Shown here piece by piece: positions 1,021-30,193 of a stretch of 49,658 nucleotides of DNA. Origin of the DNA: an uncultured Gammaproteobacteria bacterium (lineage in GTDB: Bacteria > Patescibacteriota > Microgenomatia > UBA10105 > UBA927); assembly GCA_964367065.1 (NCBI GenBank), contig CAYIWI010000002.1, positions 1 to 49,658 of the forward strand. Direction: 5' to 3'. Each line of letters opens with the position of its first letter. Position 1 is the stretch's first letter. Both the position numbers and the translations under genes were made by a program. A model generated the notes under the pieces. It was not told the origin of the DNA and ran no database searches. It saw only the letters and a list, made by a program, of their open reading frames with translations.

Positions 1021-2247
1021 ATGGAATACAGAGAGCTTGTTGGCTCGGCACTGGAAGCACTGGCGGCGAATAAAATGCGCACGGCGCTGGCGACACTGGG
1101 CATCATCATCGGTATTGCCGCAGTGATCACCCTCGTCTCATTGGGTCAGGCAGGCCAGGTGTCGGTGGAGGCGCAGATTCAGTCGCTCGGGTCCAATCTT
1201 CTGACCGTCATTCCCGGCGCGTTCCGTCCGGGTGATTTCCGCAGTGCGTCGGGTACCGCCACCACCCTCACACTTGAAGATGCGTTGGCAATCCGGGATA
1301 CACTCGCAGGCCGGGGCGTAACGAACGTGTCGGCGGAGCTTCTGCGCCGGGCGGCGGTGGTGACCGGAAAGCGCACGACCAACACCCAGGTAGTGGGCGT
1401 CATGCCCAATTACCAGAGTATCCGAAAAGTGGAACTAACTAGCGGAGCATTTATTTCCCAATCGGACCTCACGGCGCAGTCGAAAGTCGCCGTGTTGGGA
1501 CCCACGGTGGTCACGGATCTTTTCGGTGAAGGAGCACATCCGGTCGGAGCATCGGTGCGCATTAACAAAACGAGTTTCAAAGTGATCGGAACGACCGTTG
1601 CCAAAGGAGGTTCCGGATTCGGCGGGAACCAGGATGACACGGTGTTCGTGCCGTTATCCACGGCCCAAAAACAACTGTTTGGGGTCTCGTACGTCGGGTC
1701 AATTTCGGTGGAGGTGACGAAGAAGGAAGAGATGGAGGGCATACGAACCGAAATCGGCTACCTCCTCTTGTCGCGTCACAAAATACAGAATGCGCAAAAT
1801 GCAGATTTCTCTATTTTTTCGCAACAGGATATTTTGGGAGCTGCCGCACAGATCACCGGCACGTTTACCGCACTCTTGTCGGGCATTGCGGCCATTTCGC
1901 TTTTGGTCGGAGGCATCGGCATCATGAACATCATGCTTGTGACCGTGATTGAGCGCACGCGGGAAATCGGCCTTCGCAAGGCACTCGGTGCAACACCGCG
2001 CGTGATCGTTAGTCAATTTTTAATTGAATCCGTTCTGCTGACCGTCGTGGGAGGAATTTTGGGCATGCTGTTGGGAATTGCGCTGTCCTTTACCATCGCA
2101 CTGGTTATTCATTTGCCCTTCACCGTCTCCCCCGCCGCGGTTATGCTGGCAATCGTCGTATCCGGGGGCATCGGAATTCTTTTCGGATGGTATCCTGCGC
2201 AGAAAGCTGCAAAACTCTCGCCCATTGAAGCATTGCGGTACGAGTGA
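1021..2247 (+). CDS. ABC transporter permease, MacB/FtsX family
   Basis: It has an N-terminal TM, a large periplasmic MacB_PCD-like domain and a C-terminal FtsX 3-TM block (ERTREIGLRKALGA). It starts 3 nt after the ATPase gene. Confidence 0.9.
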   Translation: MEYRELVGSALEALAANKMRTALATLGIIIGIAAVITLVSLGQAGQVSVEAQIQSLGSNLLTVIPGAFRPGDFRSASGTATTLTLEDALAIRDTLAGRGVTNVSAELLRRAAVVTGKRTTNTQVVGVMPNYQSIRKVELTSGAFISQSDLTAQSKVAVLGPTVVTDLFGEGAHPVGASVRINKTSFKVIGTTVAKGGSGFGGNQDDTVFVPLSTAQKQLFGVSYVGSISVEVTKKEEMEGIRTEIGYLLLSRHKIQNAQNADFSIFSQQDILGAAAQITGTFTALLSGIAAISLLVGGIGIMNIMLVTVIERTREIGLRKALGATPRVIVSQFLIESVLLTVVGGILGMLLGIALSFTIALVIHLPFTVSPAAVMLAIVVSGGIGILFGWYPAQKAAKLSPIEALRYE

Positions 2248-3597
2248 TCACCGCTCGGGATGCCGGCGGATGGTGTAGGTTATGGGGTAGTAAAGAAACA
2301 CCGCGGGCACATCCTCCATGAGCCGTTTTTGAAAATCCACATACAGGTTTTTTCTTTTTTCCCGGTCCCCTTCCTGGCGTGCGTCTTCCAGAAGTTTATC
2401 GATTTTTGCATTTGCATAGCCGGTGATGTTGGTTTTGGCCGATGCCTGGGTTGAGTGCCAAAATGCGTACTGATCCGGATCCGGCGGGATATCTATGGCA
2501 GTGACGATGACCTGGTAGTCGGAGGGGATGGTGCGCTCGACGCGGACAGCGGTGGAGAGTCCGAGGGCTGACCAGCGGCCGGCAATGACCTGGGCCAGAT
2601 CGACATACGAAGGAAATGTCGTGATGGTGACGGAAGAAGTTGTGGCCACGAGGCTGCTCTCGAACAATTTTTTTGCTCGGGGAACATCCTCATCATAGAT
2701 GCGCACGCTATCGGTGTAGGCCCACGACGTTTTGCTTATGGGAGAAATAGCCTGTTCCTCCCGCTGCCGCGGTATGCTGTATGCCAGTGCCTGGCGCAGG
2801 AGTTTTTCTTTAAGGATCGTGTCCCGCATGTTAAAAAATACGCCGACGATGCGCCGGTACGAAACGTGCTGGTCCACCTGCGGGGTGCCCCATTGAAGAA
2901 GCGGATCCTTGGAGCTCACACCCTCCAGCACATCCACATCTCCTAATTTATAGGCGAGGATGGCTGCGGCTTCCGTGTGGTAGAACCGGAATTCATACGC
3001 GGGTCCCTCTTGCTTGCCAACGGGGACAAGCTTGAGATATTCTACGGCGTCCCCTTTGAGCCGAATTGCGGCAACGCGATAGTCTCCCACACCGATGAGG
3101 CCTCTTCGGAACAAGGGCTTGGATACGACGGTTTCAAACGGACCGTACGCAGCCGGAAGCTGGACGCGAAGGGTTGTTTCGTCAACCGGAGTGAACGTGA
3201 CGTCGCGTATGTTATAGTTAATGTCGGAAGCGGTAAGTTTTTTCCCATCATGCCAGGCAGTCTCAGGATTCAGGTGAAAGACATACGTTTTGCCCGAGTC
3301 CGTCGCTTCCCATCTGGTCGCCACCGCCGCCGCGGCGGATCCGTCAGCGGTGAGCCGGGTAAGCCCGATGCTGACGCGGCGCTGAATTTCCTCAGGCAGC
3401 GTGGTGGGAGTAAATTCCCCGACGATGCCGATGCGCTCAACACGAACGGACGCACGAAAAAATGCCAACGGTTGGGCGCGCGCTGCTAAAAACGCAAGAC
3501 TAATTCCCAGTAGGCACCCGGCAGCAATTGCTTTCCAATACTTACGGCTCAGTTCGGATATGAGCCACCAGAAGAATCGTCCGCGACCAAGCAACAC
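2248..3597 (-). CDS. ABC-type substrate-binding protein, family 5 (peptide/nickel-like), with N-terminal membrane anchor
   Basis: SBP_bac_5-like motifs are present (GKTYVFHLNPETAWHDGKKLTASDINYNI; DPDQYAFWHS), along with an N-terminal hydrophobic helix. No cognate permease is adjacent. Confidence 0.7.
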   Translation of the reverse strand: MLLGRGRFFWWLISELSRKYWKAIAAGCLLGISLAFLAARAQPLAFFRASVRVERIGIVGEFTPTTLPEEIQRRVSIGLTRLTADGSAAAAVATRWEATDSGKTYVFHLNPETAWHDGKKLTASDINYNIRDVTFTPVDETTLRVQLPAAYGPFETVVSKPLFRRGLIGVGDYRVAAIRLKGDAVEYLKLVPVGKQEGPAYEFRFYHTEAAAILAYKLGDVDVLEGVSSKDPLLQWGTPQVDQHVSYRRIVGVFFNMRDTILKEKLLRQALAYSIPRQREEQAISPISKTSWAYTDSVRIYDEDVPRAKKLFESSLVATTSSVTITTFPSYVDLAQVIAGRWSALGLSTAVRVERTIPSDYQVIVTAIDIPPDPDQYAFWHSTQASAKTNITGYANAKIDKLLEDARQEGDREKRKNLYVDFQKRLMEDVPAVFLYYPITYTIRRHPER

Positions 3598-5241: not shown

Positions 5242-6587
5242 GTGGGCTCAATCGTATCAAATCCGCGGGATCGAAGCAACTTGTGGTAGGACAGGGCGAA
5301 GCGGTGGGCCTCATCGCGGATGCGCTCAAGGACATGAAGGCCGGGGTTGGTTGCCCCCAACCGGAGTGTTTTCCAGCGGCCGTGCGGGAGCGGGACGATA
5401 ACTTCTTCAAAGCGTTTCGCAAGACCGACGATAGGAAGCGTATGGTTCAATTGTTGCATTGCTTTCATTGCTGCGGAGACCTGTGGTTTTCCCCCATCAA
5501 TAACCAAAAGGTCAGGGAATGGCCATTCTTGGTGAGATAATCTTCGGGTAATAACTTCTGCCATCATGGCAACGTCGTTTGGTCCGCCAGCTGGCGGATT
5601 GCGACGTATGCGAAATCGTTTGTACTGACTTGTATCCTTATTACCGTTGGTCAGTACCACCAATGACCCCGTGGCAAAGGTTCCGGCAATGTTGGAGATA
5701 TCAACGCATTCGATGCGAGTTGCGCGAGTAAGCTCGGGAATATACGGCGCAAGAATTACCAATAAACCATCAAGCTCCGTTTTTCTAATATCCTCGATTG
5801 CCGTATCACTTTCCACATAGACCATAGGATCGTACGATTTTTGGAGAAGTCGGGAGAGATGTTGTATGTGATTGCGGATCTTTTCTGCTTCTTCAAACTG
5901 CTGGTGAGCAGCCAATGTTTGCATCTGTTTGGTAAGATCGCTGGTGACACGGCCGGATTTGCCGGACAATATCTGCTTCAGCCGGAAAATATTGGTCCGG
6001 TATTCATGCACCAGCGCGGTCTTGGTTTCCCCCTCTTTCAGACCAACGATAACGGACGGGCATGGTGTACACAGGCCCAGGTGCGTATAAAAGCACGGGT
6101 TACCGGTTCGGCGTTTTTGGGTGCAATACGGTATCGTGTGCCGCAGGTGGTGCAGCATCGCTCGGACAACGGTTGCAGACGGAAACGGCCCGAACAACGC
6201 ATCGTTTCTTTTGAGCTTCTTGGGAATGTCTGTGCGCCGAACCGTGCGCACGTGGGGCAGTTCTTCGGAGAGCGTTATGAGGACATACAACGGACTTTTA
6301 TCGTCTTTGAGAGCGACATTATACTTCGGCGCAAGGTCATGGATAAGCTTTGCCTCAAGAAGCAGCGCGTCAAACTCACTGGCCGTGTGTATGGTTTCAA
6401 TATCGGCAATTTGCGAAACGAGCAATTGTGTTTTTGGGCCGATGGCGTCCCGCACCCAGTATTGGGAAACGCGCTTTTTGAGATCCTTTGCCTTGCCAAC
6501 GTAGAGGACCCGCCCGGTTTGGCTGCGATAGAGGTACACACCCGGTGTGTGCGGGAGGCGGGCAATTAGCGTTTGAAGATCTTCCAT
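5238..6587 (-). CDS. uvrC: excinuclease ABC subunit C, short form lacking the C-terminal (HhH)2 domain
   Basis: It has a GIY-YIG N-terminus (PGVYLYRSQTGRVLYVGKAKDLKKRVSQY), a UVR motif (QQFEEAEKIRNHIQHL) and an RNase-H-like endonuclease region (IECVDISN...RDEAHRFA). The protein is 449 aa and ends at ...FDTIEPT. Confidence 0.9.
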   Translation of the reverse strand: MEDLQTLIARLPHTPGVYLYRSQTGRVLYVGKAKDLKKRVSQYWVRDAIGPKTQLLVSQIADIETIHTASEFDALLLEAKLIHDLAPKYNVALKDDKSPLYVLITLSEELPHVRTVRRTDIPKKLKRNDALFGPFPSATVVRAMLHHLRHTIPYCTQKRRTGNPCFYTHLGLCTPCPSVIVGLKEGETKTALVHEYRTNIFRLKQILSGKSGRVTSDLTKQMQTLAAHQQFEEAEKIRNHIQHLSRLLQKSYDPMVYVESDTAIEDIRKTELDGLLVILAPYIPELTRATRIECVDISNIAGTFATGSLVVLTNGNKDTSQYKRFRIRRNPPAGGPNDVAMMAEVITRRLSHQEWPFPDLLVIDGGKPQVSAAMKAMQQLNHTLPIVGLAKRFEEVIVPLPHGRWKTLRLGATNPGLHVLERIRDEAHRFALSYHKLLRSRGFDTIEPT

Positions 6588-8353
6588 AGGACGACGACGG
6601 CTGCGATAGCGACGACGACCAGCGGAATAAACAGCACATACGTTGGCGCGATATCGAAAAAGCTGGTGGTTGTGGCATCGCCAACGCGTACGCCGATCGT
6701 TCCGCGGCGTGCAGCGGTACCTGCCGGAACTGTCAAATTGAGCGGGATGGTGATCGCGCCGTAGGGAGGGACAACAGAAAAAGTTTTGTCGTAGGTCAGA
6801 TCAACCGGCGTTGCCTGCAGGGAAACCGAAACGTCCCGCACCGCGGCTTGTCCGGTATTTTGTATCACGACCGATCCTTGCTGGGGCACACCTGCGGTAA
6901 CTTTTTTGGGGAACACAATGGTGGTCGTGAGTGCTGGGGTTGCAGGGACGGCGGATCCCTGGGCAAAGCCGACGAGCACGTCCTTGCCCTGTTTTCCCTC
7001 CTTGCGATACGATCCGGGCGGCAGGGGCGTGGTGCTTGATTTACCGTGGTTGACAAAGGCAACGTGGTTGAAATCCAGCTTGTCGAAATAATTAATTCCT
7101 CCGGTTGTTTTTCCCCACGTCGGGTCAACGGGGATCCAAATGCTCTTTTCACTATCGTAATACTCCGGCCATGCGTGCAACACATCAGCCACAAAGGACA
7201 GGGGCCGCAGCGTCGCGTTGTTGGTGTAGGCGTACCCGACCACCTCGCGTGCGGGTATGCCTGCTGCGCGGGCCATCGCGACAAACAAATCGGTAAATTC
7301 CATGCAGAGAGAATTTGCCGGAGACGCCAGCGCTGCCACGGCTCCTTTGCGGATCGGGTTTTGCTTCACCCGGCTGTCATCATAGGAAAGTGTGCCAACG
7401 ACGTAATCATAGATTTCCCGCGGTGTCCGATACTGGTTGGCGAGGCTGATGATTTTTGGGTTTTGTGTTTCCCAGTACTGGTCGCTGACGAGGTATTCGT
7501 TGGGATTAATGAACTCCCGGTATCCCTCTTTGGCAGACAACGTGACTGCTGCGGTGGCGTACACGGTGATATCCAGCGACGCGTTGGGTGCAAGCTGATA
7601 CTCAGCAAGCCAATTGCCATCAGAGTCAGCGGTGACGGAGAGGGGTTTGGGCGTGATATCAGAGACGGTAATGGTTTGATATGCAGTATCCGGAGGGAGA
7701 GCTATATGAGCCGTGGAAGGCGTAACGCCGGGGTTTTCTATGTGATACGAAAGCGCCATGGAGAAAAACTGTCTGGTGCCGTATGCCGCGCTTATGCCGC
7801 CGCGGGTAAGCTGCGCCTTGGTCCAGGTGTTGGCAGCCCCCGGAGCCGGAACCATGTACGCATTTGGCCCGAAAGACTCCGGAGTTGACAGGTTTACGGA
7901 ATAGGAGCCGATGTCCGGATCATCCGTGACGCCCGGGATGTTCACTTCCCAGATGCTTCCGTTCTTTTGCGCAATGTCGCCGTTTTCGAAGCGCAGGGTA
8001 AACTGCATGGTTTTCCCCAGGCCCACGACCTGTTCGTTGAAGGTCAGAAGAATTTCGGTTTTTCCGTCTTTTTGGCTGATGGCCGGTGAGATGGGTCCGC
8101 CGCCATCGTATGCGATGATATTTTTAAGGTGGACGGAATCGATGAGGATGGCGTACTTCTTGGGGTACAGGTTGGACAGCTTATTGGTAAGAGCTATGTT
8201 TTGCGTAACGATGGTGGTGCCGCCGGGAGAAATCGAGTACTGTACGTTGTAATCTGCGCGGAATTCTCCCGCCGCAAGCACCAGCGGCGCAATAAACAAA
8301 TAAACGAATAAACTAATAAACGAATAAACGAATGTGAAAAAAATCTTTTTCAT
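6566..8353 (-). CDS. transglutaminase-like domain protein with N-terminal signal/anchor and C-terminal TM anchor
   Basis: The transglutaminase core is present: C..F...ARAAGIPAR.V.GY, then HAWPEYY, then WIPVDPTW. The N-terminus and C-terminus are both hydrophobic. Confidence 0.75.
   Translation of the reverse strand: MKKIFFTFVYSFISLFVYLFIAPLVLAAGEFRADYNVQYSISPGGTTIVTQNIALTNKLSNLYPKKYAILIDSVHLKNIIAYDGGGPISPAISQKDGKTEILLTFNEQVVGLGKTMQFTLRFENGDIAQKNGSIWEVNIPGVTDDPDIGSYSVNLSTPESFGPNAYMVPAPGAANTWTKAQLTRGGISAAYGTRQFFSMALSYHIENPGVTPSTAHIALPPDTAYQTITVSDITPKPLSVTADSDGNWLAEYQLAPNASLDITVYATAAVTLSAKEGYREFINPNEYLVSDQYWETQNPKIISLANQYRTPREIYDYVVGTLSYDDSRVKQNPIRKGAVAALASPANSLCMEFTDLFVAMARAAGIPAREVVGYAYTNNATLRPLSFVADVLHAWPEYYDSEKSIWIPVDPTWGKTTGGINYFDKLDFNHVAFVNHGKSSTTPLPPGSYRKEGKQGKDVLVGFAQGSAVPATPALTTTIVFPKKVTAGVPQQGSVVIQNTGQAAVRDVSVSLQATPVDLTYDKTFSVVPPYGAITIPLNLTVPAGTAARRGTIGVRVGDATTTSFFDIAPTYVLFIPLVVVAIAAVVVLWKIFKR
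8291..8333 (-). repeat. five tandem 8-nt units (plus strand AATAAACN; coding strand TT[C/A/T]GTTTA) inside the signal-peptide codons of the transglutaminase-like gene
   Basis: Read directly from the plus strand: aataaaca aataaacg aataaact aataaacg aataaacg aat. An A7 run follows at 8337..8343. Confidence 0.9.
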
Positions 8354-8381: not shown

Positions 8382-11303
8382 CTATTCTAGTATTTTTTTG
8401 AGGTATTGTCCCGTGTATGACTGTTTTACCTGCGCCAGATGGTGCGGCGTACCCGTCGCCACGACTCGGCCGCCTGCGTCTCCGCCATCCGGCCCCAAAT
8501 CGATAATCCAGTCCGCGTTTTTGATGAGGTCCAGGTTGTGTTCGATGACCACCACGGTGTTGCCCGCAGCCGTCAGGCGGTGAAGGACTAAGAGGAGCTT
8601 TTCCAAATCGGCAAAGTGGAGGCCGGTGGTAGGCTCATCTAATATATAGAAGGTGCGGCCCGTGGCGCGCCTGGAAAGTTCGGTGGCGAGCTTGACGCGT
8701 TGGGCTTCCCCGCCGGACAAGGTCGGGGCGGGCTGGCCCAAATGGATATAGCCCAACCCCACGTCTTCGATCGTTTTGAGTTTTTCCGAAAGTGCCCAGT
8801 GGTGGCTGAAAAATTCCCGTGCCTCTGAAATCGTCATATCCAAAACCTGGCTGATATTTTTCCCATGAAATTGAACTTCCAGTGTTTCCGCGTTATACCG
8901 GGATCCGTGGCAGACGTCGCAGGTGACGTAAATATCAGAAAGGAACTGCATTTCGATTTTTTTCTGGCCCTCCCCTTCGCATGCCTCACAGCGGCCGCCT
9001 CCTCCCTTGGAGGAGACGTTAAAAGAAAACCTGCCCGGCTCATAGCCGCGCAGATGTGCCTCCTGCGTGTTGGCAAAAATTTCACGGACGGGAGAAAAGA
9101 TGCCCGTGTAGGTGGCCGGATTGCTTCGCGGCGTCCGGCCGATCGGAGACTGATCGATGAGAATTACTTTATCAATGGCTTCTAAGCCATCGATGCGAGC
9201 GTGCGCTCCGGGCTTTTCTTTTGCAAAGGGGTTGAAATGTGCGGCGAGTGCCCGGTAGAGCGTTTCGACGATGAGTGTGGATTTACCGCTCCCGGATACG
9301 CCGGTGACGGCTATGAGCCGGCCTACGGGAAACGAAACGTCTATGTGTTTGAGATTGTGCTCCGAGGCAGCGACCACGGTTACGGTGTCAGAAGGGCCGG
9401 AAGACTTCCCAACAGTTGGCCGCGCAATCGTTTTTTCTCCGGTAAGGTATTTTCCGGTTAATGAGTGGTTATTCTTTTTTATATCGCCAACGGTCCCTTG
9501 TGCGATAATTGCTCCGCCGTGTTCTCCGGCTCCGGGACCAAAATCAACGATCCAATCCGCATGTTCCATGGTTTCCCGGTCGTGTTCGACCACGATGACC
9601 GTGTTACCCAAATCCCGCAGCCTCTTGAGGGTATTGACGAGCATCACGTTGTCTTTCTGGTGCAGCCCGATGGATGGCTCGTCTAAAACATAGAGCACGC
9701 CGGACAAACCGGACCCGATTTGGGATGCCAGACGGATACGCTGCGCTTCCCCGCCGGAAAGCGTGGTGGCGGAGCGGGAAAGCGTAAGATAATTGAGCCC
9801 CACGGCGTCCAAAAACGCCAGCCGGCCTCCGATCTCTTTCACAATCGGCGCGGCAATGGCCTCTTCGGTTTTACCCGAAAGGTTTTTGGGCAAGTGACCT
9901 ACCCATTCCAGACCATCGCGTACCGAAAGATCCGTGACGTCGGCGATGGAAAACCCGTCAACGGTAATGGTCAGTGCTTCCTTTTTAAGTCGTTTGCCGC
10001 GGCATGCCGCGCAGATTTCCTCACGCATATACTTTTCTATTTCCGCGCGCACGAAATCCGACGCGGATTCACTGTACCGGCGCTTGAGTTCCGGAATAAT
10101 GCCGCGGTAGGGCTCCTCAATGGTCGTGAGGTCGCCAAACCTGTTTTGCCCTTTTACCAGGTACGTTTTGTCTCCGGTGCCGTTCAAGAGCACGCCCATC
10201 TGCTTTTTGGTGAGTTTACCAAGCGCCAGTCTCGGGTCAATGTCGTGAGTAGCCGCCACCGTAGTGATAACGCGCGCAAACCATGTGTCGTGGAAAAACA
10301 TCCGGGCAAACGGGAGAATTCCTCCCTCGGTGATGGACAACTCTTTGCGGATAACCAGATCGGGATCAACAGTCAGAATGTTGCCTAACCCGCTGCAGCT
10401 GGAGCACGCGCCGTGGGGCGAGTTAAAAGAAAAGGATCGCGGTTCAATTTCGGGGAGAGAGATATTGCACACCGGACAGGAGAATTTTTCAGAGAAGATG
10501 TGATCGGTCACGTGTTTGGGCTTATCCGGAATAGCAAACCCGCTGTCTTGAATTTCCCCCACGACGACGAGTCCTTCAGAGAGGGCAAGAGACTGCTCTA
10601 CTGCTTCGGAAATTCGACTGCGCAGCGCATTGAACGTTTTTGCATCGAGGGTGAGTTTGTCCACAACGACATCTATCGTATGTTTGTTGGTTTTAATAAG
10701 GACAATATCTTCATCAATGTCAAAAAAAAGACCGTCCACACGCACCTGGCGGTACCCTTTGGCGCGTACATTATCAAACAGGCCGGTAAATTCACCCTTC
10801 CGGTCCCGTACGACCGGGGCCATGATCGCGAACCGGTAGTGCTTTCGGGTTTTATGTTGCAGCGCATCCCCGGCACGCTTGATGATCTGTTCCACAATCT
10901 GCTGGGACGACTGGCGGCTGATTTCGCGGCCGCAATTGGGGCAGTGGGGGTGTCCGATGCGCGCAAACAGGAGGCGCAGGTAATCATAGATTTCCGTCAC
11001 GGTGCCCACGGTGGAACGCGGGTTGTGCGAGCCGGATTTCTGGTCGATGGAAATGGACGGCGATAGGCCTTCGATGCTGTCTACGTCAGGTTTGTCCATG
11101 ACGCCTAAAAATTGCCGTGCATAGGAGCTTAACGACTCCACATAGCGGCGCTGCCCCTCGGCGTAAATCGTGTCAAAGGCAAGTGATGACTTGCCGGATC
11201 CCGAAAGACCGGTAAACACGATAAGCTTATTTTTGGGAAGCTCGAGTGTAATGTTTTTGAGATTATGCTGGCGTGCGCCCTTAATGCGAATGACGTTTTC
11301 CAT
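8382..11303 (-). CDS. uvrA: excinuclease ABC subunit A
   Basis: Two ABC modules are present ([14 protein letters not shown]; [10 protein letters not shown]; two LSGGE.QR signatures) plus Zn-finger cysteines. I placed the start at ATG 11303 ([17 protein letters not shown]), which matches canonical UvrA N-termini. Confidence 0.96.
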
Positions 11304-11352
11304 ATCCAAAATGACCACCGATAAACCGTGGCAGAGGAATTATATCACGTGA

Positions 11353-14086: not shown

Positions 14087-14702
14087 CCCGGCGCGAACCC
14101 TTCCTTTTGCGGTATGCGCCTGCTGCATGAATGATAATCGGCAGGAGTGATGCCGCGACGATCAGGAAAATCACATATTCGTAGTTGTGTTTGATAATGG
14201 GGATGTTTCCCAGGAGGTACCCCAGTGTGGCAATGCCGACGCTCCACAGAAACCCGCCCAGGAAGTTATAGAAAATGAATGTCTGATAATGCATTTTTGC
14301 GGCGCCGGCCACGATTGGCGCAAATGTACGCACGAACGGGACGAAGCGGGCAAGCACTATGGTTTTGGCGCCGTTTTTCTCATAAAAGCGCTGTGCTTCG
14401 AGCAAATGATGGCGCTTAAACAAAAATGAATCTTCACGCTCAAACAATTTACTCCCCACCTTGTGCCCGAACCAGTAGCCTACGTTATCACCCAAAATGG
14501 CAGCGGAGAAGGTAACCACCAGAAGAATGGGATAGTTAATAAGCCCCTGTGAAGCCAGAACGCCGGCGGTAAACAGCAAGCTGTCGCCGGGGAGGAAAAA
14601 TCCGAAAAATAGCCCGGACTCGGCAAACAGCACTGCCCATACGCCGATAAGCCCAAGGGTTTTGATAAGGAGTTCGGGGTTGAGGAGGACGTCAAGATTC
14701 AT
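14079..14702 (-). CDS. dedA: DedA family membrane protein
   Basis: The SNARE-associated/DedA signature is present (ESGLFFGFFLPGDSLLF...ARFVPFVRTFAP). Confidence 0.85.
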   Translation of the reverse strand: MNLDVLLNPELLIKTLGLIGVWAVLFAESGLFFGFFLPGDSLLFTAGVLASQGLINYPILLVVTFSAAILGDNVGYWFGHKVGSKLFEREDSFLFKRHHLLEAQRFYEKNGAKTIVLARFVPFVRTFAPIVAGAAKMHYQTFIFYNFLGGFLWSVGIATLGYLLGNIPIIKHNYEYVIFLIVAASLLPIIIHAAGAYRKRKGSRRVN

Positions 14703-14726
14703 AAATAAAAACGCGCGGTCATGCGC

Positions 14727-14732
14727 TATAAT
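14727..14732 (+). promoter_or_regulatory. -10 box TATAAT located 6 nt upstream of the rsmI ATG (leaderless-type arrangement)
   Basis: Read directly from the sequence: gcgcTATAATgattgtATG. Confidence 0.5.
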
Positions 14733-14738
14733 GATTGT

Positions 14739-15536
14739 ATGGGAACACTGTTCATTGTGTCAACACCGATCGGGAACCTGGAAGATATCACCATCCGTGC
14801 CATAAAAACGCTGTTTTCCGTGGATATCATCGCCTGCGAGGATACGCGAAGAACAGGACTATTGTTAAATGAATTAAAGAAACGATACGGTAGTCTTTAT
14901 TCTTCGAGCGAGGAGTCTTCGACGAGTCGAGAAGTTCATGCCGAAAGTTCTCGACTTCGCTCGAACAATAAGTCAGAACCAAGGCTGCTAAGCTACTATG
15001 ATCAAATTGAGCAATCAAAAACTCCTGAACTCATCGAACTACTTGAACAGGGAAAAGAAGTCGCATTGGTCAGTGACGCCGGAACGCCTCTTGTCTCCGA
15101 CCCGGGCTACAAACTTGTCCGAGAAGCAATCAGACGAGGTATTACAGTGGTAAGCATCCCCGGCCCGACTGCCGCAATAGCCGCGCTTACCGCAAGCGGA
15201 CTTCCGACAGACAAATTTTTATTCCTCGGCTACCCGCCGGAAAAATCATCGCATCGCATCAGACTCTTTGAATCTCTTTCAGAAGTGTTCAAAAGACCTC
15301 GCCTTGTCGAAGCAAGGCGAGGTCTTGATAAATCCCCGACGTTTATCTTCTACTGCGCGCCACATAAACTTGTACAAACGCTTGAAGACATGAAGCAAAC
15401 ACTTGGCGACATCGATATTGTCATCGCCCGGGAACTGACCAAGGTTCACGAGGAAGTATGGCGAGGAAGCATTTCAGAGGCGATTGTTGAGTTTCAGTTA
15501 CCTAAAGGCGAGATAGTCCTGCTTTTTTGCTTATAA
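14739..15536 (+). CDS. rsmI: 16S rRNA (cytidine1402-2'-O)-methyltransferase RsmI, carrying two in-frame palindromic insertions
   Basis: TP-methylase fold motifs are present (LFIVSTPIGNLEDIT.RA...ACEDTRRTG; SDAGTPLVSDPG; ARELTK.HEE). The start at ATG 14739 (MGTLFIV) matches canonical N-termini. Confidence 0.9.
   Translation: MGTLFIVSTPIGNLEDITIRAIKTLFSVDIIACEDTRRTGLLLNELKKRYGSLYSSSEESSTSREVHAESSRLRSNNKSEPRLLSYYDQIEQSKTPELIELLEQGKEVALVSDAGTPLVSDPGYKLVREAIRRGITVVSIPGPTAAIAALTASGLPTDKFLFLGYPPEKSSHRIRLFESLSEVFKRPRLVEARRGLDKSPTFIFYCAPHKLVQTLEDMKQTLGDIDIVIARELTKVHEEVWRGSISEAIVEFQLPKGEIVLLFCL
14900..14971 (+). repeat. 72-nt palindromic repeat element, copy 1, in frame within rsmI (encodes SSSEESSTSREVHAESSRLRSNNK)
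   Basis: It is ~89% identical to the reverse complement of 29183..29253. Internal inverted repeats are TTCGAGCGA/TCGCTCGAA (outer) and GTCGAGAA/TTCTCGAC (inner). Confidence 0.85.
15294..15325 (+). repeat. perfect 13-bp-stem, 6-nt-loop palindrome in frame within rsmI (encodes KRPRLVEARRGL)
   Basis: Read directly from the sequence: AGACCTCGCCTTG tcgaag CAAGGCGAGGTCT. Confidence 0.9.
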
Positions 15537-21672: not shown

Positions 21673-21799
21673 TCTTATTGCGTGTTAAAATCGAAGAGAC
21701 TTCTGAGGTAAAAATGTATTTCAGAACTCAGAACTCAAATCTCAATGACCAACGCGGTAAAAGAATTTTATAAAATCTTCCCACCTTGTTGTGTTCTGG

Positions 21800-24097
21800 T
21801 CATTGAGTTCTGGGTTCTATTTTAATGATCTTTTTCCTTACCAATTTCTTTTCCGCCTCTGCGATCGTTTCGCGTACACGGTCCACGGCATCGGGGTTGA
21901 CGGAGACGCTTGTGATGCCCCACGAGACCAGTTTGTCTACGAGTTCCGGATAATCCGACGGCGCCTGGCCGCACATGGAGACGGTGACGCCGCGTTTGAC
22001 ACACGTTCGAATAACCCGCTCAAACGCCCATAAAACCGCTTCATCCATTTCATTAAAGTCGTGTGCCACCTCCTGGTTGTCCCGGTCGGTTCCCATAATA
22101 AGCATGGTCAGGTCATTGGACCCGATGGAAATTCCGTCGATGCCCACATCCAGATAGCGGTCCAAAATGATGACATTGGTCGGAAGCTCGCACATCATCC
22201 AGAGCTTGAACGTGGGAGACCTGAGAAGCCCATTGCTTGCTACGATTTTTTTGACCTCGAGCATCTCCTTGGGTGTACGCACAAACGGGATCATCAGGTT
22301 GAGATTTTTGAGGCCGTATTTATTGCGCACGAGCTTGATGGCCTCAAGCTCAAGATCAAAGACCTGGGAGTCGGCTATATAGCGGGCAGCGCCCCGGAAC
22401 CCCAGCATTGGGTTTTCCTCGGGCGGCTCAAACGCGGCGCCTCCTTTGAGGTTTCGATATTCGTTGGTTCTGAAGTCGGTGGCCCGGTACACTACGGGTC
22501 TGGGTGAGAATGCGCGACAAAAGGTTTCCAGACCATCGGCGAGCTTTTGGATGAATACCCGCTGCTTTTTGTCCGCGATAAATTTGCGCGGGTGTGTACC
22601 GATATCGGCAACCATAAACTCCGCCCGCAGAAGCCCCACCCCGTCCACATTCATCTTCGACACGGCCTGCGCCCGGCTTACCTCGGCCAAATTCACATAC
22701 ACTTTCGTCGCCGTCTTCAGTTTTTTCGAATTGGCCGAATTAGACAAATTTGCCAAATTTGGCTTTTGCGCCACCGCTCCTTTATACACATCCCCCGTGG
22801 ATCCGTTGACGGTGATCACCATGCCGTCGTTTACAAGTTTTCTGACATCCTTCGCACCAACGACGGCAGGAATTCCCAGCTCTCGGGAAACGATTGCTGC
22901 GTGCGACGTTCTGCCGCCGCGCTCGGTAAGAATGGCCACGGCTTTGCGCATCGCAGGGACAAAATCAGGATTGGTTTGTTCCGCCACCAGCACGTCACCA
23001 GCGACGATCTTATGGATTTCTTTTGCTGAAGTTAGTTTCTTCACCGGTCCCGATGCTATCCCCGGGGATGCAGGGTCCCCTTTCACCAAAACCTCATTGG
23101 TGATCGACGATGTTGTAGTAGCAACCGTTTGCTTGCCAAGGGTCGTCACGGGACGTGTCTGCACGAGGTACACGCGATCGTTTTCTACGGCCCACTCCGC
23201 ATCCTGGGGAAAGTAATAGTGCTTCTCGAGTTTTTTACCAAGCTTAGCCAGTTCAATAATCGTATGATCCGGTAGTTTCTGCTTGTTTGCCTGAGATGGC
23301 GAAACTGCAAGAATTGCATTTTTGGCGCCCTTCTTGGTCATGAGTTTTTCCTGGCTGCCGATTTGTTTGACCAGTATCGCATTGGAACCCTTCTCCACCT
23401 CATAGTGATCGGGCGTGACAGCTCCCTGGACGATCATTTCTCCCAGTCCGTAAATCGCTTCGATGACGATTTTACTTTTATCATTGGTCACCGGATCCAC
23501 GGTAAACATGACGCCCGACGTGTCTGAGGCAACCATCCGCTGCACGGGCACGGCAATGCCCACACGGAAATGATCAAAGTGATTCGTCTGCCGATAGAAG
23601 ATGGCCCGGGCGGTAAACAGCGATGCCCAGGCTTCTTTTACTTTTTCAATAACATTGGCTTCTCCCTGCACATTAAGAAACGTGGACTGCTGGCCGGCAA
23701 ATGACGCACCCGGCAAATCTTCCGCGGTAGCGGAGGACCGTACCGCGACAAGGGCGTGTTTCAGGACGTTGCCCCCCAGACGAAAATATGCGCGGATTAT
23801 GTCGCTGGCGACTTCTTTGGGAAACTTCGACCGCATTATAAGCGTTTGTACGCTCTTGGCGGTTTTTTCAAGCTCCCTGGCGTTGTTTACGTCTAAACCC
23901 AGCAACAGTCGCTCAATTTTTCCCTTAATGCCGGCATCGTCCAAAAATTTTTGGTAGGCGGCAACGGTAACGATAAATCCGGTCGGCACGGGAAATCCGG
24001 CCTGTGTCATTTCCCCCAAATTTGCTCCTTTTCCCCCAACCGATCCGATATCCCCTTTGTCCACGTGAGAAAACGCAACGATGTAGCGCGGTGTCAT
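21800..24097 (-). CDS. ppsA: phosphoenolpyruvate synthase (pyruvate, water dikinase)
   Basis: It has an N-terminal ATP-grasp (GGKGANLGEM), the phosphohistidine segment GGRTSHAAIVSRELGIP and a C-terminal PEP-utilising TIM barrel. Confidence 0.94.
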   Translation of the reverse strand: MTPRYIVAFSHVDKGDIGSVGGKGANLGEMTQAGFPVPTGFIVTVAAYQKFLDDAGIKGKIERLLLGLDVNNARELEKTAKSVQTLIMRSKFPKEVASDIIRAYFRLGGNVLKHALVAVRSSATAEDLPGASFAGQQSTFLNVQGEANVIEKVKEAWASLFTARAIFYRQTNHFDHFRVGIAVPVQRMVASDTSGVMFTVDPVTNDKSKIVIEAIYGLGEMIVQGAVTPDHYEVEKGSNAILVKQIGSQEKLMTKKGAKNAILAVSPSQANKQKLPDHTIIELAKLGKKLEKHYYFPQDAEWAVENDRVYLVQTRPVTTLGKQTVATTTSSITNEVLVKGDPASPGIASGPVKKLTSAKEIHKIVAGDVLVAEQTNPDFVPAMRKAVAILTERGGRTSHAAIVSRELGIPAVVGAKDVRKLVNDGMVITVNGSTGDVYKGAVAQKPNLANLSNSANSKKLKTATKVYVNLAEVSRAQAVSKMNVDGVGLLRAEFMVADIGTHPRKFIADKKQRVFIQKLADGLETFCRAFSPRPVVYRATDFRTNEYRNLKGGAAFEPPEENPMLGFRGAARYIADSQVFDLELEAIKLVRNKYGLKNLNLMIPFVRTPKEMLEVKKIVASNGLLRSPTFKLWMMCELPTNVIILDRYLDVGIDGISIGSNDLTMLIMGTDRDNQEVAHDFNEMDEAVLWAFERVIRTCVKRGVTVSMCGQAPSDYPELVDKLVSWGITSVSVNPDAVDRVRETIAEAEKKLVRKKIIKIEPRTQ

Positions 24098-28283: not shown

Positions 28284-29546
28284 TTATTCACCTCCTTTGT
28301 AATACTTCTTCCCTTTTATTCTATCAGGTAACAGACTCTCTGCGCTATACGGTTGGTAGCCGCGGCCGTAACCTAATCCTTTCATAAGCTTCGTCGGTGC
28401 ATTGCGAATCGGTAAGGGGATAGGAAGGTTTCCCAACTGTTTCACGTCTTCAAGCGCGCGAAAATACGCATCATAGGCGCTCCGGTCTTTTTTAGCCAGG
28501 GAAAGGTAAACAACACCGTGGGCAAGATTTTCCTGACACTCGGGATAGCCGATCTTGTTACACGCATCAAATACCGCATCGGCAACCACGAGTGCCGTGG
28601 GCTGTGCCATGCCGATGTCTTCGGAGGCAAAGACTACCATGCGCCGTGCAATAAACAGCGGATCTTCGCCTGCCGCAACCATGCGCGCCAAATAATAGAG
28701 TGCCGCATCCACGTCACTGGCCCGCATGGATTTGATGAAGGCGGAAATGGTGTTGTAGTGCTCATCGCCGACCCGGTCGTACTGAAGCATTTTACGCTGT
28801 GCCGCTTCCTCGATATGTGCAGTCGTAAACTTGACAGGGTCTGACCCTGTCAAACGCGCGGCAATTTCAAGGATGGTCAGAAGTGCCCGGGCGTCACCAT
28901 TGGAAACTTCCAGTAAAAACCCGCGCGCATCGTCTGAAATAGATCGTTTGAGGTATGCTAGTCCTCGATCAATAAGTGTACTCAATTCCTTTTCGGTAAG
29001 CGGATTGAGTACAAAAACTCTGCATCGTGAGAGGAGAGGAGAAATGACTTCAAAAGAGGGGTTTTCGGTCGTTGCGCCGATAAAAATAATCGTTCCTTTT
29101 TCCACATGGGGCAATAAGGCATCTTGCTGTGCTTTATTAAACCGGTGGATCTCATCAAGAAAAAATATCGTCCGTTGCGGTATTATTGTTCGAGCTTGTC
29201 GAGAACTTCCTTGATGAACTTCTCGACTCGTCAAAGACTCCTCGCTCGAAGAAGAGAGAGTATTGAGCCTATCTTTTGCCTCTTTGACAACTCTCCGTAC
29301 ATCGGCGAGCGTAGCGCTGACGGCAGAATGCGACTCAAAGTGAGCATTCGTAAGCGTTGCCAAAAGGTGGGCAAGGGTCGTTTTGCCGCACCCGGGAGGT
29401 CCCCAAAATATCATGGAAGGCAAAAAACCGGAAGTGAGGAATTTTCTGATAATGCCGGATTCACCAACAAGATGGGCTTGCCCGATGAGCTCATCAAGCG
29501 TTTGAGGCCTGAGGATTTCTGCAAGCGGCCGGCTCTCGGTCATCAT
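28284..29546 (-). CDS. rarA: replication-associated recombination protein A (AAA+ ATPase RarA/MgsA) carrying an in-frame palindromic insertion
   Basis: Walker A GPPGCGKTT, Walker B FFLDEIHRFNK.QQD and the C-terminal MgsA domain (HYNTISAFIKSMRASD..AALYYLARM) are present. Confidence 0.92.
   Translation of the reverse strand: MMTESRPLAEILRPQTLDELIGQAHLVGESGIIRKFLTSGFLPSMIFWGPPGCGKTTLAHLLATLTNAHFESHSAVSATLADVRRVVKEAKDRLNTLSSSSEESLTSREVHQGSSRQARTIIPQRTIFFLDEIHRFNKAQQDALLPHVEKGTIIFIGATTENPSFEVISPLLSRCRVFVLNPLTEKELSTLIDRGLAYLKRSISDDARGFLLEVSNGDARALLTILEIAARLTGSDPVKFTTAHIEEAAQRKMLQYDRVGDEHYNTISAFIKSMRASDVDAALYYLARMVAAGEDPLFIARRMVVFASEDIGMAQPTALVVADAVFDACNKIGYPECQENLAHGVVYLSLAKKDRSAYDAYFRALEDVKQLGNLPIPLPIRNAPTKLMKGLGYGRGYQPYSAESLLPDRIKGKKYYKGGE
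29183..29253 (-). repeat. 71-nt palindromic repeat element, copy 2, in frame within rarA (encodes SSSEESLTSREVHQGSSRQARTII)
   Basis: Its reverse complement aligns with 14900..14971. The differences cluster in the inner loop, and there is a 1-nt indel near the 3' end. It lies in the same orientation relative to the host reading frame as copy 1. Confidence 0.85.
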
Positions 29547-29617: not shown

Positions 29618-30193
29618 ATGAAACCTCAAAAAACGGGCTACCTGGAAGTCATTGCAGGACCCATGTATTGCGGCAAAACCGAAGAGCTTATCCGTCAGGT
29701 CAAGCGTGCGTCCATTGGTAAAAAACAGGTGCAGGTATTCAAGCACGTCATTGATACGCGCTACGGCAAAGCGAAAAAAATCTTCTCCCACGCGGGATTA
29801 AGCTTTGAGTCGGAACTTATTTCCAAAGCATCTCACGTACTCAACCGTCTGCATCCGAAAACGGATATCGTGGCCATTGATGAAGCGCAGTGGTTTGGCG
29901 AAGACCTCGTGGCTGTTGTGGAAACACTGCTTGCTCGCGGCAAGCGCGTGCTGGTGTCGGGTCTGGCAATGACCTTTGACCGGCAACCGTTTGCACCGAT
30001 CCCGACCCTTATGGCAATGGCAGATAAAGTGACCAAGCTTTCCGCCGTCTGCGTCGTGTGCGGCGAGGAAGCGGTGTTTCACAAGCGCATCGGAAAAAAG
30101 AAAACCGTCAATCCGCTCAAGGCAGACCCCTCCCTCGTCGGCCGCTCCGATGCGTACGAAGCCAGGTGCCGGAAGTGCTTCCATAAGCCATAA
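29618..30193 (+). CDS. tdk: thymidine kinase
   Basis: The P-loop GPMYCGKTEEL, the DEAQF-like IDEAQWF and the C-terminal Zn-binding cysteines (C.VCG...C..C) are present. Confidence 0.94.
   Translation: MKPQKTGYLEVIAGPMYCGKTEELIRQVKRASIGKKQVQVFKHVIDTRYGKAKKIFSHAGLSFESELISKASHVLNRLHPKTDIVAIDEAQWFGEDLVAVVETLLARGKRVLVSGLAMTFDRQPFAPIPTLMAMADKVTKLSAVCVVCGEEAVFHKRIGKKKTVNPLKADPSLVGRSDAYEARCRKCFHKP

Follow-up and report, generated by a model that had tools for sequence, protein, structure and literature searches.

An in-frame copy of a dispersed palindromic repeat in the ATPase core of RarA in a Patescibacteria genome

What is the block of about 25 residues that stands between Walker A and Walker B in the RarA protein encoded here, and how does a conserved gene come to carry it? 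The host gene, rarA/mgsA, is a 420 aa ORF on the minus strand at 28284..29546 of the 49.7-kb stretch of DNA that was analysed (the window). Its product has the full set of parts that defines RarA/MgsA, namely an AAA+ module with Walker A and Walker B motifs, an AAA_assoc_2 lid and an MgsA_C domain. The Pfam matches are to MgsA_C (8.9e-50), AAA_assoc_2 and AAA, the best relative in the PDB is E. coli MgsA (3PVS; E 1.8e-88), and the fold of the AlphaFold model resembles both 3PVS and RFC subunits.

Both nucleotide-binding motifs are intact. Walker A (GPPGCGKT, residues 49-56, 29379..29402, minus strand) is invariant in the alignment of homologs, and the Walker B strand (IFFLDE, residues 127-132, 29151..29168, minus strand) starts four residues past the insert. 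The insert itself occupies residues 98-122 (29181..29255), in the helix-to-strand loop that lies after the helix following Walker A and just before the Walker B strand, and the translation around it reads ...VRRVVKEAKDRLNTL SSSSEESLTSREVHQGSSRQARTII PQRTIFFLDEIHRFNK. Protein and codon alignments with the closest insert-free homologs (P0002/L004 and P0003/L003), in which the loop has 5 residues, delimit the whole expanded loop as residues 95-124 (29175..29264, minus strand), made up of NTL, the element and IPQ. A phmmer alignment with 3PVS pairs residues 6-95 with 14-103 and residues 123-399 with 105-391, breaking exactly at the insert; because the blocks end at 103 and resume at 105, a single residue of E. 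coli MgsA is replaced by the insert. A preliminary description of this locus had read the protein in the same way, had placed the insert between the two Walker motifs and had called the E. coli linker short, and on each of these points our analysis agrees with it. In the AlphaFold model, residues 100-121 have a pLDDT below 50 and are flanked by a confident helix (80-107) and strand (126-131); on this model the insert would be exposed at the surface. It is presumably translated as part of RarA, and the tryptic peptides predicted to span it are LNTLSSSSEESLTSR and EVHQGSSR.

The insert consists of DNA that is found a second time in the window, as had been claimed. A 40-nt pattern of the element matches only at 14900..14939 (plus strand) and 29214..29253 (minus strand), with no match in any of 100 shuffled sequences; a repeat search pairs 14891-14955 with 29198-29262 as 65-nt arms of 88% complementarity, and an nhmmer profile built from seven copies agrees with both. 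Copy 1 lies in frame in rsmI (14898..14970, plus strand), is of the 73-nt subtype and translates as YSSSEESSTSREVHAESSRLRSNN. Copy 2, in rarA, spans 29184..29255 on the minus strand (nhmmer E 5.5e-22; it also aligns with the rsmI copy and with five from other contigs), within 2 nt of the 29183..29253 first proposed; it is of the 72-nt subtype and supplies 24 codons, SSSSEESLTSREVHQGSSRQARTI.

The element family is 72-73 nt long, with variants up to 92 nt, contains no transposase gene and is bounded by 13-nt terminal inverted repeats, TATT(C/G)TTCGAGC, that start with TA. In the rarA copy the 5' repeat was placed by pattern search and alignment at 29243..29255 on the minus strand (TCTTCTTCGAGCG; consensus TATTCTTCGAGCG), and the 3' repeat, read on the plus strand, by pattern search at 29184..29196 (TATTGTTCGAGCT). 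Of the 13 positions of the terminal repeats (TATTCTTCGAGCG / TATTGTTCGAGCG), 12 agree in the rsmI copy and 10 in the rarA copy, whose palindrome is modest: RNA folding gives z = -1.98 for the sense strand and also -0.80, compared with -2.46 and -3.23 for the rsmI copy. Hairpin and terminal repeats are kept across the seven copies, all of which retain the outer stem. The left arm has two GAGTC motifs, and an unpaired part of it, GGAGTCTTCGACGA, is the best-conserved stretch of the element; copies retrieved by DNA pattern were chosen for an intact left arm, which inflates left-arm conservation, and only L018, L019 and L020 are free of this bias. Position 29233 (minus strand) of the rarA element is polymorphic, the codon being TTG (Leu105) in the window and TCG (Ser), the element consensus, in L012 from the same aquifer well.

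The rsmI and rarA copies differ by one base (GACTTCGCTCG versus GACAAGCTCG), and this difference, as had been noted, alters the frame of the last codons only (LRSNNK in rsmI, QARTII in rarA). It had been read as selection to restore the host frame, but it is no repair peculiar to the rarA copy: the 72-nt form (CAAGCTCG, ...SSRQARTI) is common to the rarA copy and the copy in an unrelated methyltransferase (L009), and the 73-nt form (CTTCGCTCG, ...SSRLRSNN) to rsmI, L010, L018 and L019. The two forms are pre-existing length subtypes, each present where its length preserves the host frame.

With the copies from groundwater contigs included, the element DNA turns up in protein genes of four unrelated kinds, namely rsmI, rarA and the genes of a UPF0020-like methyltransferase and of an M24 peptidase, as well as in two intergenic gaps. 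In-frame copies lie within the SAM methyltransferase of L009 (...AVGSL[YSSSEESSTSREVQGNSSRQARTI]AVLDPFCGMGT) and the M24 peptidase of L010 (...PSTV[YSSSEESSTSREVHRDSSRLRSNDI]ILLDFGA). L005, L007 and L011 have an intergenic copy with leuS downstream, and in L008 a copy fills the space separating two ORFs of the minus strand, to both of which it is antisense; relative to neighbouring genes, intergenic copies occur in either orientation. Because the same DNA recurs in other genes and in intergenic gaps, we regard the element as dispersed, presumably mobile DNA and not as a feature of RarA. The rsmI element sits at one orthologous position across several syntenic genomes; truncated copies, in frame in rsmI, are seen in L020 and P0154. 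Two copies fall within the window and a third, in the M24 peptidase, comes from the same sequencing run, while pattern scans of genome and metagenome collections returned 1 and 6 loci, counts that are unusable for copy number because the window's own contigs are not among the returns. The RarA homologs are named in their sources as Patescibacteria group or Candidatus Gottesmanbacteria, and not as Rickettsia or Rickettsiales.

Searches at the protein and RNA levels returned little. A 30-position peptide profile run against 1.84 billion representatives recovered only P0241 and two low-complexity proteins; P0241, on contig L021, is a chimera in which the 5' part of rsmI is joined to the 3' part of the M24 peptidase gene inside the element. 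A doubled-peptide profile gave no scored candidates in a word-indexed protein database, the element pattern had no match in viral contigs, plasmids or phages, an Rfam search of the element found no RNA family, and a promoter and terminator scan gave no signal attributable to it.

All five coding insertions share one orientation and frame +1, with the peptide YSSSEESSTSREV...; this frame is stop-free and, having the lowest GRAVY (-1.55 and -1.40) of the five stop-free frames, the most hydrophilic. Were open frames used equally, the chance of one-frame usage would be (1/5)^3 to (1/5)^4, or about 0.008 to 0.002. From the shared orientation and the most hydrophilic frame of all five insertions we deduce a filter on tolerated translation. 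Six independent assemblies, drawn from several samples, all carry the rarA ORF intact (99.8-99.98% identity), and the window branch of rarA has a dN/dS of 0.08, indicating purifying selection; together these rule out pseudogene status for the insert-bearing gene. The insert-bearing gene is not decaying, in line with the earlier argument that the insert is tolerated, and the possibility raised at that time, of stops or frameshifts in other strains, is answered by the six intact assemblies. To call the two hosts essential-type genes was an overstatement, since rarA/mgsA and rsmI are both dispensable in E. coli.

The pattern of conservation differs between the element and its hosts. At codon positions 1/2/3, the identity between the window's rsmI and that of L018 is 0.88/0.96/0.88 in the element and 0.80/0.88/0.42 in the rest of the gene; against L019 it is 0.88/0.88/0.83 and 0.73/0.84/0.41, and for rarA of the window against L001 it is 0.92/0.68/0.68 and 0.83/0.89/0.44. 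Third positions are 68-88% identical within the element compared with 41-44% in the host genes, the binomial P for this excess being 5e-6, 3e-5 and 0.013 in the same order. What is conserved in the element is its nucleotide sequence and not its peptide, the three codon positions being about equally conserved. This evenness upholds the earlier claim that the peptide is not what selection maintains, but as a denial of any peptide selection the claim goes too far, given that five of five coding copies are read in the most hydrophilic frame.

The insert is lineage-specific. Of the 120 closest RarA homologs, 118 lack it and have Walker A and Walker B 45-50 aa apart; a spacing of 74 or 77 aa is confined to P0001 and P0005. 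The latter, from a non-sister Gottesmanbacteria lineage (locus L001), has a different element subtype at exactly the same site as P0001. With the insert removed, P0001 is nearest to the insert-free P0002 (89.5%) and P0003 (87.9%), and P0005 ranks only 20th; the nearest relatives of P0005 are the insert-free P0009 and P0004. Each bearer proved closer to its own insert-free neighbours than to the other bearer in 98 of 100 bootstrap resamplings, taken on pairwise identities and not on trees. The L001 element has two substitutions (GAGAGAGG and CGAATCG) and a longer right arm in common with the intergenic copy of L008, and not with the rarA copy of the window. Recent lateral transfer of an insert-bearing rarA segment was considered and ruled out, because the identity between the window and L001 does not rise around the insert. 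The related insert in the non-sister RarA is most likely a second, independent insertion of another subtype at the same permissive or preferred site.

Our data suggest a model in which the segment is one copy of a short, non-autonomous, hairpin-forming dispersed repeat that circulates in groundwater Candidatus Gottesmanbacteria, is mobilised in trans, survives in genes where it is in frame and is kept up at the nucleotide level; we consider this very likely. Copies would be spread in the fashion of MITEs by a putative trans-acting transposase, whose ORF would have the terminal flanks TATTSTTCGAGCG. A coding copy would survive only where its total length preserves the host frame, where the stop-free, very hydrophilic and near-neutral frame is the one read, and where the loop that it enters is permissive and lies across the alpha/beta fold from the nucleotide site. 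Its translation would then be a disordered loop rich in Ser, Glu and Arg, either neutral or slightly deleterious. It may be nucleotide-level processes, and not peptide selection, that maintain the sequence of the element, the candidates being recent or repeated insertion, homogenisation among copies, and constraint on the hairpin or on transposase-binding arms.

The window, the fetched loci, plasmids, phages and viral contigs yielded no transposase or full-length IS with the terminal repeats of the element. A search of the window for a longer element with these repeats returned just the two known copies and chance-level matches, and none of its ten largest other ORFs is a transposase. No consistent direct repeat of the kind left by target duplication is seen at the filled and empty rarA sites or in the flanks of ten copies. 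The filled sites (window, L001) differ from the empty ones (L003, L004) by 3 nt more than the length of the element, in a loop that evolves fast; the TA with which most copies start and finish is suggestive only as regards target duplication, and neither 72 nor 73 nt plus a 2-nt duplication adds up to a multiple of 3.

The occupied loop in two RarA lineages might instead go back to one insertion in an early Gottesmanbacteria ancestor, inherited vertically and cleanly deleted through its hairpin in most lineages, with the window and L001 as survivors of what would still be a mobile repeat. The identical position in P0001 and P0005 fits such a history, as do a window-to-L001 identity of 75% in the element, close to the 72% over the whole gene, the single orthologous position of the rsmI element in several syntenic genomes, the proneness of palindromes to deletion and the in-frame truncations in L020 and P0154. 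However, 118 of 120 homologs would each have had to restore a loop of 4-5 residues, and because the last common ancestor of the bearers, on midpoint rooting, takes in the entire 120-sequence tree, many independent precise losses would be needed. Third positions far better conserved than those of the host are also unexpected in an old passenger, and the two rarA copies are of different subtypes; we judge a single ancient insertion to be rather unlikely. The same synonymous-position conservation, well above the host background, would suit a sequence co-opted for a function of its own, be it an mRNA hairpin tuning translation or stability, a DNA site bound by protein or a flexible Ser/Glu-rich loop, and the conservation of GGAGTCTTCGACGA, the single frame and orientation of every coding copy and the occupation of the same loops in different lineages point in this direction. 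Against it stand the unrelated nature of the host enzymes, the two orientations of the intergenic copies, the near-universal lack of the insert in close RarA homologs and the decay of copies by truncation (L020) or loss of pairing (the rarA copy of the window); the element has no Rfam match or promoter- or terminator-like signal, and its left-arm conservation is in part an artefact of copy retrieval. Co-option strikes us as improbable.

A discrete hairpin-forming block within a conserved gene also recalls intervening sequences, which Patescibacteria rRNA genes carry, and the segment might be removed from the RNA or by protein splicing to leave a mature RarA without it. Frame and orientation would then be irrelevant, yet the element is always in frame, stop-free and read in its most hydrophilic frame. 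A self-splicing intron or intein was rejected, with no Rfam match to be found and with 25 residues, far below mini-intein size and devoid of intein terminal motifs; removal is very improbable. Scarcely credible, too, is an insert that arose as an artefact of assembly, or one that is an ordinary loop of this lineage, born of local duplication and not mobile DNA: assemblers do mis-join at the element, as in L021/P0241, but rarA is in frame on either side of the insert, the insert recurs in all six assemblies, and the same 72-73 nt stand in unrelated genes and intergenic DNA. Beyond the trans-mobilised repeat that we prefer, we tentatively entertain a stronger version, possible though doubtful, in which an active coding palindrome with site preference has repeatedly entered the same loops of housekeeping enzymes across Gottesmanbacteria lineages (RarA at least twice, RsmI possibly several times), always in the frame of a harmless disordered peptide and with its nucleotide sequence maintained independently of the host gene.

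The element is apparently a MITE-like coding palindrome that acts like the Rickettsia palindromic elements (RPE), and apparently one that is unreported in Patescibacteria. Related coding palindromes were reportedly found in Wolbachia by Ogata in 2005. We know of no report that RPE show, as is seen here, synonymous-position conservation above that of the host gene. In the summaries given by PMC2229807 and PMC10969869, RPE (Ogata et al., Science 290:347, 2000, and Genome Res 12:808, 2002) are likewise small palindromic repeats with terminal inverted repeats of about 12-13 bp, located between genes and in frame within conserved housekeeping genes (here four host gene families and two intergenic sites), with a stop-free frame that codes for a conserved peptide in each family. 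Those summaries also describe insertions compatible with fold and function (the gmk case), assign no mobilising enzyme or target duplication, and concern a reduced-genome, host-dependent bacterium. The Gmk protein of R. conorii has reportedly been compared in forms with and without its RPE. The present element differs in belonging to another phylum (Patescibacteria/Gottesmanbacteria), in its length of 72-73 nt (72-92 with variants) against 105-146 bp in the summary of PMC2229807, and in occupying the same protein loop in non-sister lineages; the likeness drawn here is one of features.

With the MITEs that have TA termini (Correia/NEMIS, ERIC, and RUP mobilised by IS630-Spn1; PMC2229807) the element shares a size below 200 bp, the lack of a transposase gene, terminal inverted repeats with 5'-TA at both ends in most copies, a long stem-loop and dispersed copies, and occasional in-frame fusions are described for ERIC and the 107-bp Correia element (PMC2229807). 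It is shorter than is typical of these MITEs, has no cognate IS in the window, fetched loci, plasmids, phages or viral contigs searched, and shows a high coding share (4 of 6 independent sites, a small sample). REP/BIME sequences mobilised by RAYT transposases are also short palindromic repeats conserved at the nucleotide level and present in many copies, but REPs are 20-40 nt long, have a GTAG/CGTC tag at one end and are extragenic (PMC3733652), whereas the element is at least 72 nt long, starts with TATTC and lies inside genes; identity with REP/BIME fails on these three counts.

In practical terms, the element produces chimeric contigs (L021), and MAG proteins may be misannotated by homology, or have their structures mispredicted, on account of it. 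Synonymous sites are saturated in the hosts and the element is well conserved; this contrast, together with the re-use of a loop in non-sister lineages, raises the question of whether insertion is targeted or merely filtered by selection. The element is a concrete source of lineage-specific loops in Patescibacteria proteins; if the site-preference reading is true, it would be a homing-like in-frame mobile element and could be a general source of lineage-specific insertions in this group. In-frame coding palindromes have hitherto been seen as peculiar to Rickettsia and Wolbachia, and the same phenomenon is found here in Patescibacteria. Its recurrence in a second large group of reduced-genome, host-dependent bacteria suggests that it may be a recurrent outcome of this lifestyle, with its dense coding, scant intergenic space and weak selection.

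The rarA gene of the window (28284..29546, minus strand) encodes a product of 420 residues, identified as RarA/MgsA by its Pfam domains (MgsA_C, 8.9e-50; AAA_assoc_2; AAA), and source names assign the host organism to a Patescibacteria/Candidatus Gottesmanbacteria MAG. The protein carries an insert at residues 98-122 (29181..29255), around which it reads ...VRRVVKEAKDRLNTLSSSSEESLTSREVHQGSSRQARTIIPQRTIFFLDEIHRFNK, between Walker A (GPPGCGKT, residues 49-56) and Walker B (IFFLDE, residues 127-132). The preliminary description had placed the second copy of a palindromic element here; pattern, inverted repeat, profile and motif positions all agree with this. A 40-nt pattern of the element matches the window only at 14900..14939 (plus strand, in rsmI) and 29214..29253 (minus strand) and gave no match in 100 shuffles; an inverted-repeat search of the window returned 65-nt arms with 88% complementarity; and a profile of seven element copies locates the rarA copy, on the minus strand, at 29184..29255 (E 5.5e-22).

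Alignment to E. coli MgsA (3PVS; phmmer against the PDB) pairs RarA residues 6-95 with 14-103 and 123-399 with 105-391; this break around the insert indicates that it stands in for a single residue of the E. coli protein, which is indeed short at this point, as had been remarked. In an AlphaFold model built on a 14-sequence alignment the AAA+ module is confident (pLDDT 80-90), with 3PVS and RFC clamp-loader subunits as structural matches, and residues 100-121 have a pLDDT below 50. This stretch is bounded by a helix (80-107) and the Walker B strand (126-131), and the model thus puts the insert at the N-terminal end of that strand. In P-loop, Rossmann-like topologies the N-terminal end of such a strand faces away from the nucleotide site; by analogy with this general fold, the insert would lie opposite to the site.

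The spacing between Walker A and Walker B is 45-50 residues in 118 of the 120 best RarA homologs, and 74 and 77 residues in the other two, P0001, the window allele with one substitution, and P0005. In the closest relatives, P0002 (89.5% identity with the insert excluded) and P0003 (87.9%), the loop at this site is five residues long, and their DNA shows a clean 75-nt gap relative to the window. Six contigs, assembled independently from several samples of a single well, contain the intact insert-bearing allele at 99.79-99.98% identity to the window; the contig names suggest that the wells are those of the Hainich groundwater aquifer. One of these contigs (L012) differs from the window at two positions over 9.4 kb, one of which, 29233, falls in the element: the window encodes Leu105, and L012 encodes Ser, the element consensus. 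A linked substitution pair in the thymidine kinase gene (29965 and 29968, within 29618..30193) sets the window apart from five of the six Hainich contigs (L013-L017). A three-taxon Nei-Gojobori decomposition gives dN 0.043, dS 0.52 and dN/dS 0.08 for the window branch, and neither these values nor the six assemblies show any sign of pseudogenisation. The window rarA is under purifying selection, in keeping with the proposal that the insert is not inactivating, and we infer that it is translated. Two more loops of RarA hold lineage-specific insertions in P0005, P0029, P0033 and P0038 (alignment columns 243-254 and 415-427; for example KGQTLKGKKNSLKGSD and LPASATPKALQAG); in this clade RarA tolerates insertions at several sites.

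The element follows the consensus TATTCTTCGAGCGAGGAGTCTTCGACGAGTCGAGAAGTT-(variable loop)-AGTTCTCGAC(TTCG or AAG)CTCGAACAATA, in which the terminal inverted repeats, 13 nt long, pair as an outer stem; a second, inner stem has 9-10 bp, and besides the variable loop the left arm includes a block of 14 nt that stays unpaired. RNA folding gives a weaker hairpin for the rarA copy (z = -1.98) than for the rsmI copy (z = -2.46 and -3.23). No Rfam family matches the element, and a promoter and terminator scan gave no signal attributable to it. Elsewhere in the window, an 8-nt unit (AATAAACN) is repeated about five times in tandem at 8291..8333, where uvrA (8382..11318, minus strand) meets a transglutaminase-like ORF (6566..8353, minus strand), a stretch that is probably non-coding because its period is not a multiple of three. 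In a 139-nt gap between two minus-strand genes there is also a 22-nt inverted repeat (21730..21818; 86% complementary, 45-nt spacer) that extends over the beginning of ORF 21800..24097; it could be a further small palindromic element or a hairpin with a regulatory role.

Further copies were recovered by DNA pattern scans of public genomes and metagenomes, and they show that the element is dispersed DNA rather than a RarA-specific feature. It lies in frame in a UPF0020-like SAM methyltransferase (L009; ...AVGSL[YSSSEESSTSREVQGNSSRQARTI]AVLDPFCGMGT) and in an M24 Xaa-Pro peptidase (L010; ...PSTV[YSSSEESSTSREVHRDSSRLRSNDI]ILLDFGA); it is intergenic about 140 nt upstream of leuS at three loci (L005, L007, L011); and at L008 it fills a 99-nt intergenic gap, antisense to both genes and with an extra internal hairpin. 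On L006, an unrelated JGI metagenome contig, a truncated left arm (TTCGAGGGAGGAGTCTTCGACGAGTTGAGAAAT; 2499..2533) stands alone, with no right arm, in DNA that seems to be non-coding. No relative turned up among plasmids, phages or viral contigs. The L009 methyltransferase also has ...GGNDTLRLRSGQAFQ... at 2485..2530, which we take to resemble the translation of another repeat family. In the Creatinase_N part of the L010 peptidase gene, GGTTCTCGACTACGCTCGAACAACA (1901..1937) shares 22 of 25 positions with the right arm (nhmmer E ~5e-4), is read in another frame (EVLDYARTT), and could be a relic of an older second insertion or a chance match. A contig of ERR3858135 (L021) encodes a chimeric gene (P0241): its nucleotides 1-282 match window 14689..14970, the 5' part of rsmI, and 210-1525 match L010 2275..3590, the 3' part of the M24 peptidase, at 98.7%, and the two parts meet within the element that they share. 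Mis-assembly at the repeat is the likeliest cause, a real recombinant being less likely; the contig shows the rsmI and peptidase element loci together in one sample.

All five coding insertions (window rsmI, window rarA, the rarA of L001 that encodes P0005, and the L009 and L010 genes) have the same orientation and start at codon position 1, with the common reading (Y/S)SS(S/R)EES.T.RE... Five of the six frames of the element core are stop-free, and the one in use is the most hydrophilic (GRAVY -1.55 and -1.40) and nearly uncharged. Such agreement has a chance of ~0.002-0.008 if the open frames are taken as equally used, which points to a selective filter on translations that a protein tolerates. 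The two window copies align over ~73 nt with a single 1-nt indel that alters only the last codons, as had been described (LRSNNK in rsmI, QARTII in rarA). The indel recurs across loci: a 72-nt subtype (CAAGCTCG, ...SSRQARTI) is found in window rarA and L009, and a 73-nt subtype (CTTCGCTCG, ...SSRLRSNN) in window rsmI, L010 and two rsmI ortholog loci, L018 and L019. It is therefore a pre-existing polymorphism of the element family and not a repair in the rarA copy. The L001 copy is 81 nt long, also 0 mod 3.

The rsmI orthologs, found by protein search and thus free of DNA-pattern bias, share the position of the element, and their loci are syntenic (LexA, DedA-like, rsmI). Identity at codon positions 1/2/3 between the window and L018 is 0.88/0.96/0.88 in the element and 0.80/0.88/0.42 in the rest of the gene; the values for L019 are 0.88/0.88/0.83 and 0.73/0.84/0.41, and for rarA of the window and L001 0.92/0.68/0.68 and 0.83/0.89/0.44. 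The third-position excess is significant in each case (binomial P 5e-6, 3e-5 and 0.013), and the element is conserved as nucleotides, not as peptide. The observation made in the preliminary description is confirmed and its interpretation partly supported: the length class preserves the host frame at each coding site, yet through two pre-existing subtypes rather than local restoration, and the suggested selection on frame rather than peptide agrees with the nucleotide conservation but is too strong in view of the use of one hydrophilic frame in every coding copy. An old passenger drifting as a neutral loop would not be expected to be less saturated than host synonymous sites, as the element is. 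Three explanations remain: copies younger than the host divergence, through repeated insertion; homogenisation against other copies; or constraint on the DNA or RNA, such as transposase recognition or the hairpin. In a further rsmI ortholog (P0147; L020 10145..10188, GCA_040961665.1) the element is reduced to its left ~42 nt (YSSSEESLTNRDVH), in frame with LLSYYD, evidence of decay through loss of the right arm with the frame kept; P0154 resembles P0147 in this truncation. The RsmI loop that holds the window copy (14898..14970) contains other repeat-like peptides in other Gottesmanbacteria, a VIPA.AGIQS...LDPRFRGDD-like one in P0139, P0143, P0145 and P0141 and ..PALTKSRHGESLSKR in P0125, P0129 and P0137, and may be a hot spot for several in-frame insertion families.

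The second insert-bearing RarA, P0005 (L001/L002), comes from a different well of the aquifer and carries SSREESSTNREAHNGSSLRHLADRTIK exactly where the window protein has its insert. A single ancient gain in RarA could account for this if many precise losses had followed, which we consider unlikely. When the insert is left out of account, P0005 ranks only 20th among the homologs of the window protein (79.7%), and P0009 and P0004, to which it is closest, are insert-free. In a neighbour-joining tree rooted at the midpoint, the two bearers are united only at the ancestor of all 120 sequences, and 98 of 100 bootstrap replicates of the pairwise identities place each bearer nearer to its insert-free neighbours than to the other. 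Host dS between the two genes is saturated (>2), and there is no local rise in identity near the insert, which makes a recent transfer of the rarA segment unlikely. Two substitutions and a longer right arm link the L001 element to the intergenic copy of L008 and set both apart from the window rarA copy, whose closest relative is the window rsmI element. On kinship, tree, resampling, dS and subtype together, the likelier account is that a single RarA site, permissive or preferred, received two independent insertions.

We propose that the element is a MITE-like palindromic repeat, non-autonomous and dependent on a putative enzyme for its movement; its coding insertions would persist only where the host frame is kept, where the hydrophilic frame is exposed, and where the loop leads into a beta-strand on the side opposite the active site. 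The sequences at all four host sites, RTIFFLDE (Walker B), VLDPFCGMG (methyltransferase motif I), ILLDFGA and LLSYYD, agree with this, and the sites may all be loops preceding a strand.

The closest analogue is the Rickettsia palindromic element (RPE). RPEs are palindromic repeats with ~12-bp terminal repeats and uncertain target duplication, both intergenic and fused in frame in many conserved genes, with the gmk case tested and tolerated (PMC2229807, PMC10969869); R. felis has 728, of which 85 are inside ORFs (PMC1166351). The element described here behaves alike but is best placed outside the RPE family: it occurs in a different phylum and has half the length. In size, terminal repeats and TA termini it agrees with a MITE; it does not belong to the REP elements. 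A full-text literature search, of incomplete coverage, did not turn up comparable elements in either Patescibacteria or the Candidate Phyla Radiation. The element extends coding palindromes, so far regarded as nearly unique to Rickettsiales, to another reduced-genome radiation, and raises the question of whether they are targeted to specific loops or merely filtered by selection.
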